Shown one piece after another: positions 1,464 through 22,734 of a stretch of DNA of 26,015 bases. A model generated the notes under the pieces. That model saw only the letters and a list, made by a program, of their open reading frames with translations, was not told the origin of the DNA and made no database searches. The translations under genes and the position numbers were made by a program. The first letter of the stretch is position 1. Each line of letters opens with the position of its first letter. The DNA is from a virus, in the UHGV virus genome UHGV-0203602; one strand, written 5' to 3'.

Positions 1464-4400
1464 TTATTGCTCTGGTTTTAATGCATCGTCTTCTATCGTT
1501 AACGTAACGTCTAAGACCGCTTGACTGTGGTCAGTAATCGCTAAGTCACGATAAATATTAGCGTTGGCTCCGTAGGTTTTGTAAGTAACGTAGAGACCTA
1601 ACGCACGGAACGCTTCCCCGCTGTAGAACCCAAAAGCCATACCGTTATCGGAAGACTCTCGAGCGGCTGGAGACCACGCCCCGTTAATCGGCTTATTCGG
1701 AATTGAGGTAATCGTAAACCCTTCACCTAACTCCTTAATTGCCGCATTAACTACCTTATCGTAGTTCGGATTCGTTGCACCAGCGAGTAATGCCCAACAA
1801 CAGCCTGCTAACCACAACGCACACATATGTGCGGTGAAGTCATCTTCCACCCAAACGGGTTTATTCGGTGCTGTAGGGAACTCGTTAGGGGTGTGTCCGT
1901 TAAACCGATCCACAAACCCACCTAGCCAATTCACCCAGTTTTCAATATAGCTTGTTAACGCTTCAGGAACCTCTTTACCTCTTAGTTTCAGTTCGTACCA
2001 GCAACGACACGCCGCATGAAACGCGCGAGGTTGGTACCCTGCCCACGGATGGTCATCGCCCCAATGGAACGTTGTCCAGGTATCCGCTTCTCCGTAGCTG
2101 TAGTTGTCCCAACGGTTCCAGATATACGCCGCACAGCCAGGCCCTAATTCACCGAGTTGCTGTTGATAAGCCAACTGCGAATCGTACAAGAACTGAATCT
2201 GGTTATCTAACCACAACTTATACCGGTCGTCTTTGTGGATACTGTACATAAACGGATACTGATAACCCGGATAAGGCATCCCGTGCCAGGCACCTAACTG
2301 TTCTGAACCTTCTGAATAGTTGTTCGAGAACGGTATCGTGCCCGGACAATACGCTAACGAATCCAATCGGTAATCTTTAATCGTACAATCACCCACTTTT
2401 GCATCAAACTCGGCACCACCGCGCAAGGCAATACGGAAGGTTAAAATATAACCATCGTCTTTATTAAAGACCGGTGGAACATCGTTAATACAATAGTAAG
2501 CAAAGTGCGCATGGTCAACCGTCGTGTCAGGAAGAATCGTGACCTGATCCACCTTATCGAAATTCGGTGCTGAAGGTTCAGGGTCAGTGTCTGCGTGGTC
2601 TGGTTGATAACCGGAAAGTGTTGCATCCTCAAGATTCAACGTTACCTGACGCCATTCGTTGTTTGTGTTAGGTAACATCCACCACCAACGCCAGTTATCG
2701 CTGTCGACTAAACGCAGGTTAAAATCTGCGTCTGCACGGTAGACAATAGAAACTGGTTTTACCTTCTCTTCAGCGGTTAACCAGAACCCGATAATAAACC
2801 CGGCATCGTCATCAGGAAATTCAGCTTCTACTACAGTACCCGCGCGACCGTCGTAAATGCTATCCTCAAAACGTTCTTCCCACGTACAACCACCATAGTC
2901 CGAACACGCACGGGCGTCAGCTATCAGGTAGTCCTCCCCTTCTGGGGTGGTAATACGGGCAAGTTGGCCTAAGTCAATATCGTACTGCTTAACCGTGTTC
3001 GCTGTAGACCGAGGTAAAGTTAAACCATACCAGTTTACTTCCTCGGTATCGGCTTTCACAGGGTTAATATCTACCATCGTTCTACAGTAGACAGGATCAC
3101 CGTTCTTACAAACCCCGCCGTACGTGACACGAAGTTTGGAGTCTTTGCTAATCCTGAACCGAACCGCTTGTTGCTCCATAAAGTGCTGTACCGCTTCAGG
3201 CGCATGGATGGTAATGTCTCCATTCTCATCACGGCCGTAGGTAACACTTACGGTATCTGGGTAATCGAAGTCGTACGAAATACCATCCGTAAAAGGTGTT
3301 TCCGCAGCAGTAGAACGTCGGAAGAATTTATCTGTCGCATCAATATACGTGTACTCATGTGCTGTGTAGAAAGCACAGTCTAATGCTTGTTTGTATTTCT
3401 CTTCACCCGTGATTCGCCACAGCAAATAACAGGCGTCGATAAACCACAATTCAGCATCGGCAGCATTACCGTATTGGTTTTTCGACCCTAAGAACGGTGT
3501 GTGGACCGGACGGTTATGCCACGGTTCGTTACGTTTAAACTCGTAACCACCATGTTCAACAGGAAGTTTTACCGCGTAGTTAATTAAATAGACACCGTTT
3601 AACTGCGTGTCTTTTAACTGTACGGTACCTTTATCAGCGTCTGCTAATCCTGTCTCAATAATTTCGCTATCCTGGATTTTGTTACCCGTCCAGGCAATTA
3701 TCCAGTCAACGTCGTGTTTAGGGCCTTTTGTTGCAGAGCCGCCCCAAAGCGGGGTGTACCCTGTAGCGTTGTTTAATAACGTAGGCCAATCAACCCACGC
3801 TTTGGTCTCGTAGGCTTTATCAGGATTGGTAATAACGTGAGTTAAAACATCTTCCCAATTAATTGACCCCTCTTTGTCTTCCTTGATAATCTGTACGTCT
3901 GCGTTAATGGCACCCCAGGCAGGGTGACCACGATGCGCAAACGTAAAGGTATCCAAATACTCTCCCCAGAACGGTGCACCATGCGGTATTTTACACTGTC
4001 CATTTGTAAACCTTACAGGGACGCTTTTATACCCACCTTGGGTAGGTTCCGTAGGGTGTATTGGGTAATGTGCTAATACCGGTTCTTTCCCGTTTACCAA
4101 CCAGTTACAAATACGACGCTGGGGCGTGGTCGGGATAGGTTGTCCGACGTAGAAGTACGTATTGTACGCATCCCAGGCACGTTTCGCCGCATCTAACCAT
4201 CTTTCGTCTTTCGTTGCGATATACATGTGGCAGTAACCAATAACGTGTAACGACTGACCCTCGGTCGTCGCATCCCCGTTCGGTTGGTATTCCGCCATAG
4301 TGTCAGCAATGAAATGACGGTTATTCGACAGAACACCTTCTTCGTTTTGAATATAGTGTTCGTTGTGCGCGTCGTGAGTCGTTCCCGTATTCCGGGTAAC

Positions 4401-4469
4401 GAAGGATTGGTGACCGTAAGCTAACGATAACGCGTAGCTAATCGCGTGACGCTGAAAATGTTTTCTCAT
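1464..4469 (-). CDS. Large (1001 aa) tail-fibre-associated protein; putative carbohydrate-active / receptor-binding enzyme, family unassigned
   Basis: 3006-nt ORF lying between two genes that carry the tail-fibre N-terminal domain. Protein is W/Y/G-rich as in glycoside hydrolases or depolymerases, but no motif I can assign. Start ATG directly abuts the TAG of the upstream ORF. Confidence 0.6.
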   Translation of the reverse strand: MRKHFQRHAISYALSLAYGHQSFVTRNTGTTHDAHNEHYIQNEEGVLSNNRHFIADTMAEYQPNGDATTEGQSLHVIGYCHMYIATKDERWLDAAKRAWDAYNTYFYVGQPIPTTPQRRICNWLVNGKEPVLAHYPIHPTEPTQGGYKSVPVRFTNGQCKIPHGAPFWGEYLDTFTFAHRGHPAWGAINADVQIIKEDKEGSINWEDVLTHVITNPDKAYETKAWVDWPTLLNNATGYTPLWGGSATKGPKHDVDWIIAWTGNKIQDSEIIETGLADADKGTVQLKDTQLNGVYLINYAVKLPVEHGGYEFKRNEPWHNRPVHTPFLGSKNQYGNAADAELWFIDACYLLWRITGEEKYKQALDCAFYTAHEYTYIDATDKFFRRSTAAETPFTDGISYDFDYPDTVSVTYGRDENGDITIHAPEAVQHFMEQQAVRFRISKDSKLRVTYGGVCKNGDPVYCRTMVDINPVKADTEEVNWYGLTLPRSTANTVKQYDIDLGQLARITTPEGEDYLIADARACSDYGGCTWEERFEDSIYDGRAGTVVEAEFPDDDAGFIIGFWLTAEEKVKPVSIVYRADADFNLRLVDSDNWRWWWMLPNTNNEWRQVTLNLEDATLSGYQPDHADTDPEPSAPNFDKVDQVTILPDTTVDHAHFAYYCINDVPPVFNKDDGYILTFRIALRGGAEFDAKVGDCTIKDYRLDSLAYCPGTIPFSNNYSEGSEQLGAWHGMPYPGYQYPFMYSIHKDDRYKLWLDNQIQFLYDSQLAYQQQLGELGPGCAAYIWNRWDNYSYGEADTWTTFHWGDDHPWAGYQPRAFHAACRCWYELKLRGKEVPEALTSYIENWVNWLGGFVDRFNGHTPNEFPTAPNKPVWVEDDFTAHMCALWLAGCCWALLAGATNPNYDKVVNAAIKELGEGFTITSIPNKPINGAWSPAARESSDNGMAFGFYSGEAFRALGLYVTYKTYGANANIYRDLAITDHSQAVLDVTLTIEDDALKPEQ

Positions 4470-10630: not shown

Positions 10631-10669
10631 GTAAAAATAAATACACCCTCTCTCCAAACGGAGAGAGGG
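10631..10669 (-). terminator. Intrinsic terminator
   Basis: Stem ccctctctcc / ggagagaggg, identical to the stem at 9600-9623 but with a different loop; T-run on the minus strand (GTGTATTTATTTTTAC). Confidence 0.7.
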
Positions 10670-10674
10670 GCAGC

Positions 10675-11181
10675 TTATAGCAGATTCTCTTCGCGATCAT
10701 CTACCAAGATAGACGTAATAACATAACGCGCTAAGCGACTACGCGCTTCTTCAGTTTCTTCGTCGGACGGTAATGGCTCACCTGCTGGCGCACACAACGT
10801 CAGTCCTGATTCACGAAGCTGTTCCGTGTATTCTTCTACGGCAGTTTCAAACGTACCGCGAATACCGGCGACGGTGTCCATAATCTCATCAGTTGGGATA
10901 ATGGATTCTTTCAACACCGCATGGGCATCAGTAGGTTCGACGGAGTCTAAGTTCAGTTCGACCAGCAACGCTTTCTTCGCCAGACAGTCAGTGATAAAAC
11001 ACGACAGAACTTTTTCAAACTCATCTAAACTGAATTCGGTGTCATCAGAGGCACCGGTGATGAGCTGACCGTAACGGTTAAACAGCTCTTTACAACGTGT
11101 TTCATGATCAGCATCGATATCACGAACACCGAGGTCGAAATCGTGTTGTTCGAGCTGATTAAAATCCAGAGTCTCACTCAT
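10675..11181 (-). CDS. Highly acidic protein (168 aa); function unknown, candidate DNA-mimic / anti-restriction-type protein
   Basis: About a quarter of residues are D or E, in clusters (DFDLGVRDIDADHE, SDEETEEARS); GGAG RBS; last gene of the Dam-containing operon. Confidence 0.7.
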   Translation of the reverse strand: MSETLDFNQLEQHDFDLGVRDIDADHETRCKELFNRYGQLITGASDDTEFSLDEFEKVLSCFITDCLAKKALLVELNLDSVEPTDAHAVLKESIIPTDEIMDTVAGIRGTFETAVEEYTEQLRESGLTLCAPAGEPLPSDEETEEARSRLARYVITSILVDDREENLL

Positions 11182-11220: not shown

Positions 11221-11448
11221 CTAGAGGGCCAGCGTTAACCCCGTGTGGGTTTGTACTGAACCAACACCGTCACGCGCTTTCGCTTTTGCGATAAGTTTGT
11301 CAATCACACGTTGGTGACTGCGCGTAATAACTTTACCCGGATAACCGATAATGAGCGCATTTTCGCTGTTGATTACCGCCGAGAATTCGTTATCGCCTGC
11401 GACGTAAACAATCTGTTTGTTTTTGGTTACAATACGTTTGATTTCCAT
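11221..11448 (-). CDS. Hypothetical protein (75 aa)
   Basis: ATG with AAGGA 7 nt upstream. Confidence 0.65.
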   Translation of the reverse strand: MEIKRIVTKNKQIVYVAGDNEFSAVINSENALIIGYPGKVITRSHQRVIDKLIAKAKARDGVGSVQTHTGLTLAL

Positions 11449-11457
11449 TCATCATCC

Positions 11458-12231
11458 TTAAAAGATAAAGTGGCCGGTTAATGGTTCTACCTCAACTCCA
11501 CCCATAGACGGTGGGGCTGTGTATGGAAACGTGAGGCGAACAGTTGCGCCTTTCAGATAAGCAATACGGAAATACGTGGTTAGTAGTGCGTTTCCGTAAG
11601 TGCAATCGTTATAGAAAAAGCCTTCGGTGGCAAACGTCTTTTCGTTGATTTTCGAATAGACTAAGATACCTTCAACCTTACCGTCTTTACGACAACACAA
11701 CCCTTCTGCTGCGCCTACGGCTAACAACCCTAAACAATGCGTGTCCAGGTTGACATTAACAACCTTAGGAATCGTAAACGTCTCTTCTAACGTTAGGGAT
11801 TCAACGTCGAACACGTCAGGTAAGTCAGTGCGCACTTCTGGCTTTTCAGTAATCGTAAGGTCATAATCGATTGACGTCGGTTGCATACCTAAAAACGTCA
11901 TTAACTGATCACGACGTTTTAGGTCATTAGCAGGGTAGGTGACATCAAACATCTTCACGTTTAACAGACGTTTGAGTTGGGCGAAATTGATGTTCTTCTT
12001 CGCAAACACAACGATTGCGGACATGTAGAATATCTTACCGTCTGCACGCCCTGAAAAGATGCCCTGTAACTGGTTAGTGTTCGAAAGGATGATAAAGGTG
12101 GGGTCTTCAGATTCCCGAATGATTTCCTTTTCCATTAACCCTTTGCGTACACGGGTTAACGAAACCATTTTCCCATCGACACCAATCGCCAAATGGTCAT
12201 TACGATAATCGTGGATATCCACTATACGCAT
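11458..12231 (-). CDS. Hypothetical protein (257 aa), translationally coupled to the Dam methyltransferase gene
   Basis: TAATG overlap with dam; no recognisable motif. Confidence 0.75.
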   Translation of the reverse strand: MRIVDIHDYRNDHLAIGVDGKMVSLTRVRKGLMEKEIIRESEDPTFIILSNTNQLQGIFSGRADGKIFYMSAIVVFAKKNINFAQLKRLLNVKMFDVTYPANDLKRRDQLMTFLGMQPTSIDYDLTITEKPEVRTDLPDVFDVESLTLEETFTIPKVVNVNLDTHCLGLLAVGAAEGLCCRKDGKVEGILVYSKINEKTFATEGFFYNDCTYGNALLTTYFRIAYLKGATVRLTFPYTAPPSMGGVEVEPLTGHFIF

Positions 12232-13046
12232 TAGAGCACTCCTAACAATTCCGTTACCGTTTTACGAGCAGCACCTGACGCACCCATGTATCGCCCTACT
12301 TCTACAGAACGCCATTCGAACCCGTAATAAATCTCACGCGTTAGTAACGTATCTGCATTGGACAACACAACGCTATTCCCTTTCTCAACCTGCTTAAACA
12401 GCGCTCTGGCGAGTTCCCGATGGTCGGCCTGGGAAAACTCCTTCCGATGGTATTGCGCGTGTTTAGCGGTCTCTGAGAGCGGTATATAAGGTGGGTCTGC
12501 GTAAATCACGCTGTCATCCGGTGTACGCTCTAAAACTGTTCGGAAATCCTCACAAACAATTTCTAAGTATTCCGGTTCTTGACAACGTTTAGCCCAACCA
12601 CGAATCTCTTCTAACGGGTAATACACACCGTTAGGATAGCGACCAAACGGAACGTTAAAACCACCGCTGCCGTTGTAACGACACATCCCGTTAAAACCGT
12701 GACGCATTAAGTACAGAAACATTGCAGCACGATCTAACGGAGCCATATCCGTTTCACGATTAAACAACTCACGGCGTTCCATATACTTAATACAATCGTT
12801 ACCGTCTTCGAATAGCGGTTTCGACTTTAAGATAAGTTCTTCAGGTTGGTCTTTCGCCACATTCAGCAACTGGATTAAGTCAGGGTTAGAGTCAGCAAGA
12901 ATGTAACGTTTATAACGTGTGTTCAAAAACACTGACCCTGCGCCAACAAACGGTTCAACGAAAGTGGTACGTTCAGGTAAGACTTGTAGTAAGGTGTCGA
13001 TAATCCGCGATTTGCCACCCATCCACTTTATAATTGGTTTATGCAT
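12231..13046 (-). CDS. dam: DNA adenine (N6) methyltransferase, Dam family
   Basis: IKWMGGKSR, VEPFVGAGSVFLN and the catalytic DPPY (YADPPYIPLS) are collinear with E. coli Dam (KWAGGKYPLL, VEPFVGAGSVFLNT, DPPY). Confidence 0.9.
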   Translation of the reverse strand: MHKPIIKWMGGKSRIIDTLLQVLPERTTFVEPFVGAGSVFLNTRYKRYILADSNPDLIQLLNVAKDQPEELILKSKPLFEDGNDCIKYMERRELFNRETDMAPLDRAAMFLYLMRHGFNGMCRYNGSGGFNVPFGRYPNGVYYPLEEIRGWAKRCQEPEYLEIVCEDFRTVLERTPDDSVIYADPPYIPLSETAKHAQYHRKEFSQADHRELARALFKQVEKGNSVVLSNADTLLTREIYYGFEWRSVEVGRYMGASGAARKTVTELLGVL

Positions 13047-14025
13047 TAATTCCGCCTTGTAACGATGACATTTCGTCGCCTAGCACTAACTCGACGCGGT
13101 TTTTCCGACGCTCCCAACTGACGACATCGTCGTCGCGCACTAAAACAAATTCGTACTCGTAGGGACGGAATTTAAACAAATCTACAGCCAGGTGTCTAAA
13201 TGCTGGGTTGTTATTGTAACACCCTATTTCTAATGGTGCTGCTGTTGTCGATGCAATCTGTAAAGCACGGTACAACAACGCACGCCCAATCCCACGGCCC
13301 CGGTGTGACTCACTTACCGCAATGGCTTTTAGTTCGCACTCGCTAAGATTGCGTGATTTAACTTGCACCACACCCACAATGTCGTTACCGTCCATCCAAA
13401 CGTAAGTGTAGTGATTGACGTGACGCACTAACTCCACCAGCGTTTCAACTTGCGGCATTATTTGTCGAGAACGCGTCACAGGGTCAGCATTGATGTTTTC
13501 AACAACGCTAGTGCCAAACAACGTCATGAGCTGTTCACGTTGTGCTCTGGTTAAGTCTTTATAGAAGTCGCCAGAGACGTTCTTCACGTTCGTCGGTAAA
13601 GTGACATCCAGTAGCTTACGCGTACCTAAACGATATGCTGTGTGGGTATGTCTAAACCCTAAATCGTTAAACTCAGCAATTTCTTCCACACCTCTGGCAA
13701 TTCGGTTAAGGTACGTAAACCCAGTATAGTCGAGTACCAGTAGAAGACTCAGTTTGTTCAAACACCCAGGTACAATTTCGTGCATATACAAGCAGTGTAA
13801 CGTTGGGTCACCGTAAATGTGTTTTGTGATGATAAACCCTTGGATTGTTTTTCCTTTTTGTAAAGAGAACGTATTCAGCTCAGTATTGCACAGTGCTTCA
13901 CGAATCGCCGCACCGTTAGGCCCCGTTAAACATGCCTGAAGCTGAGGATTGCGAATATCTCTACGGGTTAAGCGTCCTACTGTTAAATCAGAAGAGGTTC
14001 TTTCTATCGTTTTACGATATACCAT
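13039..14025 (-). CDS. GNAT-family N-acetyltransferase domain protein (328 aa; C-terminal GNAT, N-terminal about 200 aa unassigned)
   Basis: C-terminal IAVSESHRGRGIGRALLYRAL (GNAT acetyl-CoA-binding motif A, R-x-x-G-x-G); strong RBS AAGGAG; 8-nt overlap with the dam start. Confidence 0.7.
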   Translation of the reverse strand: MVYRKTIERTSSDLTVGRLTRRDIRNPQLQACLTGPNGAAIREALCNTELNTFSLQKGKTIQGFIITKHIYGDPTLHCLYMHEIVPGCLNKLSLLLVLDYTGFTYLNRIARGVEEIAEFNDLGFRHTHTAYRLGTRKLLDVTLPTNVKNVSGDFYKDLTRAQREQLMTLFGTSVVENINADPVTRSRQIMPQVETLVELVRHVNHYTYVWMDGNDIVGVVQVKSRNLSECELKAIAVSESHRGRGIGRALLYRALQIASTTAAPLEIGCYNNNPAFRHLAVDLFKFRPYEYEFVLVRDDDVVSWERRKNRVELVLGDEMSSLQGGINA

Positions 14026-14054
14026 TTTAATACTCCTTATCGGCCTTCCTCACA

Positions 14055-14098
14055 ACAAAAGAAAAAGTTGTAAAAAGAAAAAGGGAGCCGAAGCTCCC
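14055..14098 (-). terminator. Intrinsic terminator
   Basis: gggagc-cgaa-gctccc hairpin (UUCG loop on the transcript) followed on the minus strand by a long T-rich run. Confidence 0.65.
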
Positions 14099-14111
14099 TG
14101 TTTGTTACAAA

Positions 14112-14795
14112 CTACCAAAGCTTAGAACTAGTGAATGCTGCACTAGAATCTGGAACCTTGCCTCTTAATTTATCACGCAGAAGTTCAAAGAACATGCGAT
14201 GATAAGCGTAATATTTTTCCAACCGATTGTATTCAATCAGGTTTTCTAACGCCGGATGAAAGCGAAGATGTTTGTTAGGACTGGAAAGGGAAAACGGAAC
14301 GACTTCTTCATTAAGCAAGATAGGATACTTAACGCTATCGCCCATTTCAGCATACAACATTTTGGTGTCGAAAACGAAATAAGCCGTTGGGTGAAAGCCT
14401 AACCACGCTGAAGCCTCAACAAAGAAGTCAGTCAATTTACTAGCAATCTGGCTGATCATCTTATCGTCTGATTTAAACATCAGGCGCAGGAAAATCTCGC
14501 TAATGACTGAACCCGTAAGCAGTTTTTCTTTGTGGATACCTGGAACGACTGCCAGTATCTCGTCGTCGAGTCGACAGACAAGCGTGTACAGGTCGAAAAC
14601 CGGGTAATGGTAAATATCGATCGTTAAACTCGCGCGCGGAGTGTAACTTAAGATTTTATCCCCGTGTATTTCTGTGGCAGGCGACATAAGCGCAAGCTTC
14701 TTACTAGGCTCAGTCTGCTTAACTTCTGCTTCCTTAGTATCAACCGGTTTTTCTACGGTTTCTTTAACTTCGGTTTTCTTAGTTCTCGGTGCCAT
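14112..14795 (-). CDS. Hypothetical protein (227 aa), lysine/glutamate-rich N-terminus
   Basis: ATG with AAAGGAG 7 nt upstream. Confidence 0.75.
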   Translation of the reverse strand: MAPRTKKTEVKETVEKPVDTKEAEVKQTEPSKKLALMSPATEIHGDKILSYTPRASLTIDIYHYPVFDLYTLVCRLDDEILAVVPGIHKEKLLTGSVISEIFLRLMFKSDDKMISQIASKLTDFFVEASAWLGFHPTAYFVFDTKMLYAEMGDSVKYPILLNEEVVPFSLSSPNKHLRFHPALENLIEYNRLEKYYAYHRMFFELLRDKLRGKVPDSSAAFTSSKLW

Positions 14796-15973: not shown

Positions 15974-16012
15974 GCGTTCACATAATAGCTATTGGTTGTA
16001 ATAAATTTTAGG

Positions 16013-17586: not shown

Positions 17587-18054
17587 TTAGATTTCCTTTA
17601 TCATTTCCCTGCATTCGGTACGGAATCCCATTTTCTCATACAAGGAGATAGCTTTAACGTTGTTGTCTAACACATCCAGACTCATCCAACCACAACCTTT
17701 GGACTTTCCGTATTCACGGACTTTGTCCATAAGCGCACGCCCTACCCCTTGAGAGCGTGCTTCAGGAATCACATAGTAATTCCCGATGTAAACGAACGTG
17801 TCTTTTGAGCAAGAACCCAATGAGAACGTCATAAAGCCCAGAAGCTGTTCGTTGTCACCCACCGCACACGCACAGAGATAATCTTGAGGCCAAATCTCTT
17901 CTAAGCGTTCGATGGGGTTAAACGTGTCACGTCCAGTTAACTGACTAATACGCACTTTCTCTTCTGCGAACAACATGTTGTGCAGTTTGAGTACCTGGTC
18001 GCCGTATAACTTTCCGTATTTACTGTCGGGTTTGAGAATAATAGTAATACGCAT
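17587..18054 (-). CDS. GNAT-family N-acetyltransferase (155 aa)
   Basis: VIPEARSQGVGRALMDKV (motif A) and ISLYEKMGF (motif B); TAATG overlap with the upstream gene. Confidence 0.85.
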   Translation of the reverse strand: MRITIILKPDSKYGKLYGDQVLKLHNMLFAEEKVRISQLTGRDTFNPIERLEEIWPQDYLCACAVGDNEQLLGFMTFSLGSCSKDTFVYIGNYYVIPEARSQGVGRALMDKVREYGKSKGCGWMSLDVLDNNVKAISLYEKMGFRTECREMIKEI

Positions 18055-22650: not shown

Positions 22651-22684
22651 GATAAGTCTCCTTGTTCAAGTCTCACAGTATGAT

Positions 22685-22734
22685 CAAAAATTGTAAAATA
22701 AAAAGAAGAAAACCTCTACCCGAAGGTAGAGGTT
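22685..22734 (-). terminator. Intrinsic terminator
   Basis: aacctctacc-cgaa-ggtagaggtt (C(UUCG)G loop on the transcript) followed on the minus strand by TTTTCTTCTTTTTATTTTAC. Confidence 0.75.

Follow-up and report, generated by a model that had tools for sequence, protein, structure and literature searches.

Closest described systems

The window analysed here is a stretch of 26,015 nucleotides (nt) of the UHGV virus genome UHGV-0203602. Within it we characterized three consecutive genes: G, which encodes a 328-amino-acid (aa) protein with a GNAT domain, the gene of a 271-aa DNA adenine methyltransferase (Dam), and X, which encodes a protein of 257 aa. The closest described counterparts are found in the phages SPN3US (SPN3US_0104/0105/0106, JN641803), Caitlin (gp115-117), Wellington (gp132-134) and pEa_SNUABM_29, where gene order, strand, neighbourhood as well as the terminator and a conserved element upstream are as in the window. 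SPN3US and the Erwinia phages differ from it in that they carry an extra gene, Y, after X and in that the genes are separated by short gaps instead of overlapping. From the deposition of SPN3US onwards, the trio has carried the annotation ‘GNAT, DNA adenine methylase, hypothetical protein’, and it was also annotated by the Prokaryotic Genome Annotation Pipeline (PGAP) in NZ_CP173450.1. Our literature searches found no paper discussing the trio and no methylation or restriction data on SPN3US-like phages. With moderate confidence we read the three genes as the front part of a separately co-transcribed, non-structural accessory operon rather than as a demonstrated three-enzyme machine.

Dam and G belong to well-known families. 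The X family is restricted to this clade, and we assign it to the GNAT fold with moderate confidence. E. coli Dam (2g1p, 4rtj) is a GATC-specific orphan methyltransferase, whose FxGxG and DPPY motifs, GATC contacts and lack of an adjacent nuclease recur in the phage Dam. In contrast to the host enzyme, the phage protein stays under the cutoff of the host equivalog, and its GATC specificity is predicted only. The MshD-type tandem GNATs (mycothiol synthase Rv0819, 1ozp; MAB_4324, VipF) resemble G in architecture only, at approximately 8% identity. Against the MshD equivalog G scored 22.8 compared to a cutoff of 163, and nothing points to a mycothiol-type substrate. In phage Mu, Dam is provided by the host and regulates the transcription of mom without being a pathway partner, and for G no specific similarity to Mom was detected. 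What Mom, a DNA adenine-modifying enzyme of the GNAT superfamily, has in common with G is that it is likewise a phage GNAT-fold protein genetically linked to Dam, with a possible role in anti-restriction (in part from PMC7824862).

The 1001-aa protein encoded at positions 1464-4469 of the window shares 72-78% identity with the tail protein of two jumbo phages with genomes of about 240 kilobases (kb), Salmonella phage SPN3US and Erwinia phage Asesino. A megablast search of 50,697 deposited phage records gave no match for the cassette itself. It was found at 96.5% identity over 3.1 kb and with identical gene order in NZ_CP173450.1, a circular ‘plasmid’ of 221,873 base pairs (bp) in the RefSeq complete assembly of E. 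coli strain 98232 (urine, Egypt). There PGAP calls the identical three open reading frames (ORFs), which also overlap by 8 nt and 1 nt. A further copy with approximately 90% identity and overlaps of 20 nt and 1 nt is present on a 225-kb metagenomic scaffold. From the tail protein match, the E. coli record and the scaffold we assign the window to an SPN3US-like jumbo phage of E. coli or Shigella that has no deposited phage genome. The ‘plasmid’ record resembles a jumbo-phage genome that was assembled as a plasmid, via a carrier state or contamination, and points to a cultivable host-phage pair.

A methyltransferase between a GNAT protein and its probable paralogue

Pfam confirmed the assignments of the sequence-only reading for the 328-aa protein as a GNAT and for the 271-aa protein as a Dam, while the third protein stayed unassigned. 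Dam matched the D12 family PF02086 with an E value of 1.6e-57 (195.6 bits, cutoff 22) and TIGR00571 dam with 255 bits (cutoff 114.85). Its score against the host Dam equivalog NF008152 (255.7 bits) fell under the cutoff of 441, such that we place it in a diverged phage lineage of the dam subfamily. Over its full length the protein aligned with E. coli Dam (2g1p, E 2.9e-64). It contains the S-adenosylmethionine (SAM)-binding motif FVGAG at residue 33 and the catalytic DPPY at residues 184-187 (nt 12486-12497). DPPY was kept in all seven relatives examined, and a loop RHG[YF]NG[LM]CRYN is conserved in relatives. Positions that contact GATC in 2g1p are retained or conservatively replaced, both in the window and in all relatives (E. 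coli/phage: K9/K7, Y119/F118, N120/N119, L122/M121, R124/R123, P134/P133). In the scanned genes on either side of dam Pfam detected no nuclease domain that could provide the cognate endonuclease of a restriction-modification system, nor any other domain on either side of the cassette. Since no nuclease gene is adjacent, we take Dam to be an orphan methyltransferase, which is very probably specific for GATC.

The annotated Dam starts in SPN3US (L001:5173-5197) and Asesino (L007:6256-6343) appear to lie too far downstream. Homology to the Dam of the window and of E. coli runs 8 (SPN3US) and 29 (Asesino) residues further, to a GTG and an ATG, respectively, and the extended N-termini include the conserved DNA-contact motif (I/L)KW.

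The GNAT domain of G was recognized by Pfam PF00583 at residues 198-279 (E 5.5e-12, 46.4 bits, cutoff 20.7). It lies within a canonical GNAT domain comprising residues 147-296, which is preceded by an N-terminal GNAT-like domain (residues 14-133) lacking the cofactor motif. Of the two domains only the C-terminal one thus carries the acetyl-CoA motif, RGRGIG (residues 242-247, nt 13285-13302). In the G orthologues of Erwinia phages the fourth position of this motif is R instead of G. G has the GNAT fold and can be described as a two-domain GNAT protein with a predicted acetyl-CoA-dependent C-terminal domain. In sequence it matched RimI, RibT and MshD through their generic cofactor-binding core only. 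None of the NCBIfam equivalogs was reached at cutoff, rimI scoring 26.8 compared to 86.4, in line with the value for MshD given above. Specific similarity to Mom was not found: Pfam and NCBIfam returned generic acetyltransferases only, the presence of a Mom profile in these libraries being unverified.

For X neither Pfam nor NCBIfam gave a match, and none of 19 family members matched a Pfam GNAT profile even at E values up to 10. A profile search of PDB sequences returned nothing relevant, and word-indexed searches found the same phage clade only. When 1.84 billion representative proteins were searched exhaustively with a profile, 9 clusters were obtained, all of approximately 265 aa. As far as these searches reach, X is a family restricted to this phage clade. 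This agrees with the expectation of the sequence-only reading that neither G nor X would have clear, unrelated housekeeping homologues: X had no homologues outside the clade at all.

Structure prediction provided further insight into X. The AlphaFold2 model had a predicted local distance difference test (pLDDT) score of 61, the N-terminal half scoring about 80 and residues 133-213 below 50. In this model of modest quality the order of secondary structure elements reads as two GNAT-type units. Among the models in BFVD, independently predicted members of the X family superposed at template modelling (TM) scores of 0.80-0.84. G proteins from jumbo phages of Erwinia ranked next, with E values between 4e-11 and 2e-10. 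Behind them came viral N-myristoyltransferases as well as FemAB, and the folds of both are likewise of the tandem-GNAT type. Proteins of 213-215 aa from phages Kwan and Huxley appeared among the low-TM Foldseek matches of the X model.

The relation between X and G was also seen at the level of sequence profiles. With one sequence per genus, hhalign aligned G and X colinearly over 206 columns at a probability of 78.8% (E 1.7e-5), compared to at most 15% for all control pairs. A first comparison with a probability of 0.8% is superseded; it was based on shallow alignments dominated by near-identical sequences. The acetyl-CoA motif Q/RxxGxG/A of the beta4-alpha3 junction was absent at the equivalent position in 19 of 19 X-family members. 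With moderate confidence we therefore assign X a tandem GNAT-like fold, and since no family member carries the cofactor motif, X is most likely a catalytically dead paralogue (pseudoenzyme) of G. The members of the X family can now be viewed as degenerate tandem-GNAT paralogues, which would direct the search for their function to binding or regulation and not to catalysis. If X is a G paralogue, as is likely, shared ancestry would suffice to explain why dam has a GNAT-fold gene on either side, and a shared function need not be invoked.

A role of X as virion protein was considered and rejected. The SPN3US ‘gp160’ is a head protein present in more than 300 copies (PMC5694885). The RefSeq tags ACQ60_gp160-162 (NC_027402.1) of the trio had been mistaken for this protein. 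These tags run opposite to the numbering of GenBank JN641803.1 and of the literature, in which the same genes are SPN3US_0106-0104. The gp160 of PMC5694885 is therefore not the X orthologue. In the SPN3US proteome and genetics papers gp104-107 are not mentioned.

Conservation, gene layout and GATC content

The sequence-only reading had made its proposal dependent on synteny of the three genes in relatives, which was borne out. Among the loci read, the order G-Dam-X is syntenic in SPN3US (SPN3US_0104-0106), Caitlin, Wellington, pEa_SNUABM_29 and pEa_SNUABM_11. All five phages have a thymidylate kinase and a helix-turn-helix protein upstream and orthologues of the 75-aa and 168-aa genes of the window downstream. 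With tblastn, G was matched in 48 phage records (Seoulvirus, Machinavirus, Wellingtonvirus), and the coordinates of the matches fit G-Dam-X synteny in all of them. X was matched in 53 records, i.e. in these 48 and in five Erskinevirus records. A related Dam (at least 49% identity) occurs in the same genera, and Dam and X are both found in the same 53 records from four genera. In Erskinevirus (Asesino, Stratton, phiEaH2) G is absent while Dam-X is kept. In Asesino the upstream terminator is followed after approximately 170 nt by an intact dam and then by X, G simply being missing. Dam-X is the sole invariant pair and is adjacent in every locus read.

Sequence conservation differed strongly between the proteins. 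Compared to SPN3US, protein identity was 67% for Dam, 30% for G and 24% for X. Between genera G and X are the least conserved proteins of the neighbourhood (24-30% versus 40-67% for the neighbours). Within the clade the ratio of nonsynonymous to synonymous substitution rates (dN/dS) was 0.08 for G and 0.054 for X. These values indicate purifying selection, and both can thus be taken as genuine genes. Most neighbour genes shared 87-97% protein identity with the 225-kb scaffold. Only 82% was reached by Dam, whose synonymous divergence (dS) was saturated, and only 37% by the 227-aa gene that precedes the terminator (14112-14795). This suggests mosaic replacement through recombination.

The layout described, in which three minus-strand ORFs overlap by 8 nt and 1 nt behind the ribosome-binding site AAGGAG, with a terminator just upstream, was verified throughout (Table 1). 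The stop of G and the start of Dam have ATGCATAA in common, the stop of Dam and the start of X TAATG. The term ‘translationally fused’, however, does not apply: the ORFs are separate, lie in differing frames, and Dam and X each have their own Shine-Dalgarno-like sequence (AAGGCGGA for Dam, AGGAG for X). Of the 38 same-strand junctions of the window, 11 show an overlap of 1, 4 or 8 nt; such overlaps are therefore the normal packing of this genome and no mark of the cassette. Among more remote relatives, G and Dam are spaced by +6 to +79 nt and Dam and X by -4 to +10 nt, and the overlaps of the cassette recur in close relatives only. The described linkage by overlaps hence exists here, but is common in the genome and not conserved in relatives.

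Two terminator-like hairpins, at 14082-14099 and 10646-10669, bound the region, such that the transcription unit probably comprises five genes (G, Dam, X, and the 75-aa and 168-aa genes) and not three. The upstream hairpin is kept at the orthologous position in SPN3US, pEa_SNUABM_29, Caitlin, Wellington, pEa_SNUABM_11 and Asesino. Between this hairpin and G lies a conserved element, in which TTTTTAC and a downstream T-TG are invariant across four genera, while the G protein is only 20-30% identical. In the form TTACAA-N14-TGTGA it occurs three times on the minus strand of the window (14050-14073, 15978-16001 and 22673-22696). All three copies are intergenic and each is located directly 3' of a terminator hairpin. 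Counts of TTAC-N10-17-TGTGA and of TGTGAGA in the window showed no enrichment over shuffled sequence. Position and cross-genus conservation are thus what makes the element a candidate promoter for the phage's own RNA polymerase. No RNA genes were identified in the window with Rfam or a tRNA scan.

Table 1. Features of the G-Dam-X region in the window and of additional genes in related loci (L001, SPN3US; L007, Asesino).
Feature	Position	Strand	Basis or remark
G, 328-aa tandem-GNAT protein	13039..14025	minus	ORF list, Pfam
Dam, 271-aa N6-adenine DNA methyltransferase	12231..13046	minus	ORF list, Pfam PF02086
X, 257-aa protein	11458..12231	minus	ORF list; no Pfam assignment
75-aa protein, phrog_7896, orthologue of SPN3US_0108 (42% identity)	11221..11448	minus	9 nt downstream of X
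168-aa protein, phrog_8221	10675..11181	minus	final gene ahead of next terminator
Terminator-like hairpin, AGGGAGC TTCG GCTCCCT then TTTTTCTTTTT (7 bp, GC-rich, T-run)	14082..14099	minus	consensus scan; ends upstream unit
Terminator-like hairpin, 10 bp, 7 GC pairs	10646..10669	minus	consensus scan; after 168-aa gene
AAGGAG ribosome-binding site of G	14033..14038	minus	7 nt before ATG, read from sequence
Conserved intergenic element CTTTTTAC-N14-TGTTGTGA, putative phage promoter	14050..14077	minus	cross-genus conservation and position
Y in relatives	L001:6814-7626, L002:6786-8347, L004:6190-6927, L005:6144-6965, L006:6040-6777, L007:7900-8718		
Upstream paralogue network in relatives	L001:975-1733, L004:528-3392, L006:88-3226, L007:2471-4016		

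Gene Y (about 245-272 aa) follows X in most relatives and is duplicated in Caitlin. It is absent from the window, the E. coli ‘plasmid’ record and the 225-kb scaffold; in the window X and the 75-aa gene are separated by a mere 9 nt. Y is weakly related to X (hhalign probability 15%, E 0.0017). Upstream of the cassette in relatives, hypothetical proteins of 210-260 aa form a weak paralogue network (BLASTP E values of 1e-4 to 1e-10), and this region may constitute an extended array of related folds. No link of the upstream paralogues to G or X was obtained with hhalign. Y and the upstream 227-aa family were considered as further GNAT paralogues and dropped as unproven, with hhalign probabilities of only 15% and at most 3%, respectively.

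GATC is the most depleted palindromic tetramer of the window. It occurs 37 times compared to 105 sites expected from trinucleotide frequencies, which corresponds to an observed-to-expected (O/E) ratio of 0.35; none of 300 Markov-2 simulations gave fewer than 76 sites. Loci from six related phages that encode Dam gave O/E ratios of 0.19-0.35, i.e. an equal or stronger depletion. Across the window and these loci the depletion is thus 3- to 5-fold. By combining an own GATC methylase with such an avoidance, these phages raise the question of the selective pressure on GATC sites when the hosts of jumbo phages are Dam-positive enterobacteria.

Possible roles of the cassette

According to the reading that we favour, the unit would consist, in this order, of a terminator, the promoter-like element, G, Dam, X, the 75-aa gene, the 168-aa gene and a second terminator. 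Dam would methylate GATC on the phage DNA. This could shield it from nucleases directed at GATC, or play a part in regulation or packaging. G would acetylate a protein or a small-molecule substrate, where its N-terminal pseudo-domain may act as a substrate-binding lobe as in MshD-type tandem GNATs. X would be a non-catalytic paralogue that functions as a binding or regulatory subunit. A host-derived dam would have come to sit inside an array of GNAT-fold paralogues, with the genes being tied by co-expression and history. If Dam and the two GNAT-fold proteins merely share an operon in this way, they represent ordinary jumbo-phage accessory content.

Several points weigh against this picture. 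The literature searches returned nothing on the SPN3US orthologues gp104-106. The X model is modest (pLDDT 61, C-terminal half below 50), and the profile match between G and X reaches only 79%. Dam and X are kept at most 10 nt apart everywhere read although X is only about 20-25% identical, which suggests a functional tie beyond history only. E. coli already has a Dam, and any benefit of a phage copy is itself conjecture. Avoidance of GATC is also odd if the phage's own Dam fully protects GATC sites and the hosts are Dam-positive as well.

The constant proximity of Dam and X could mean that X is a dedicated Dam partner, i.e. a non-catalytic GNAT-fold subunit that controls the activity, specificity or localisation of Dam, for example by delivering it to the compartment of phage DNA replication, with G being an optional accessory. 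Their occurrence in the same 53 records of four genera would be in agreement with such a role, as would their adjacency in every locus read including those of Erskinevirus without G, the ribosome-binding site of X inside the end of dam with the 1-nt TAATG junction in this clade, and the purifying selection on X. Tight spacing is, however, the norm in this genome. Moreover, identities among relatives of 50-70% for Dam and about 20-25% for X are unlike those of a co-evolving interface, and Dam has the make-up of the self-sufficient E. coli Dam, which works without a partner. We regard a dedicated partnership as unlikely. That Dam and X form an obligate pair of SPN3US-like jumbo phages, in which X targets or re-programmes Dam, for example by carrying it to the compartment with the phage DNA, or together with G yields another adenine modification, with the GATC depletion being part of the same adaptation, seems very doubtful to us.

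The sequence-only reading had suggested that the three proteins may form a DNA- or protein-modification module. While the synteny it relied on holds, G is missing in Erskinevirus, the coupling is not conserved and X is likely a G paralogue; no sign of joint DNA or protein modification by the three proteins was seen in the analyses made here. In a specific form of this idea, Dam-type base flipping would be combined with an acyl transfer by a GNAT fold, similar to Mu Mom, to produce N6-acyl or otherwise modified adenine. GNAT-fold genes flank the DNA methylase on both sides, by our count in four genera, GATC is strongly depleted, and Mom-family GNATs as well as other GNAT-based DNA modification systems have been described in jumbo phages (PMC7824862). 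Nevertheless, G matches only generic N-acetyltransferase profiles (RimI, RibT, MshD) via the cofactor-binding core and is dispensable in Erskinevirus, X lacks the cofactor motif, and from the canonical DPPY and SAM motifs of Dam plain N6-methyladenine is the expected product. Hypermodification is in our view highly improbable.

G, alone or with X, could instead be an anti-defence or host-takeover acetyltransferase that is functionally unrelated to Dam. Phage-encoded precedents for such activities are AcrVA5, which acetylates Cas12a, and the phiKMV-like Rac, which acts on the RNA polymerase alpha subunit. The acetyl-CoA motif of G is complete in this clade, and the low conservation of G and X between genera fits proteins that track host targets. 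For GNATs of jumbo phages an action like that of Rac has been predicted (PMC7824862). Within the clade selection is, however, strongly purifying and not diversifying (dN/dS 0.05-0.08), and no specific anti-defence family was matched, PADLOC and dedicated anti-defence libraries not having been searched. We consider this role, which overlaps and is compatible with an accessory operon, to be distinctly unlikely.

The window encodes a second GNAT. This protein of 155 aa (17587-18054, minus strand) is a single-domain, canonical member that matched PF00583 at 8.8e-19. Its gene overlaps by 1 nt the end of a gene for a phiKZ-type internal head protein (PF12699; 18054-19187, minus strand), and Asesino gp110/gp111 are annotated as the same pair of GNAT and internal head protein.

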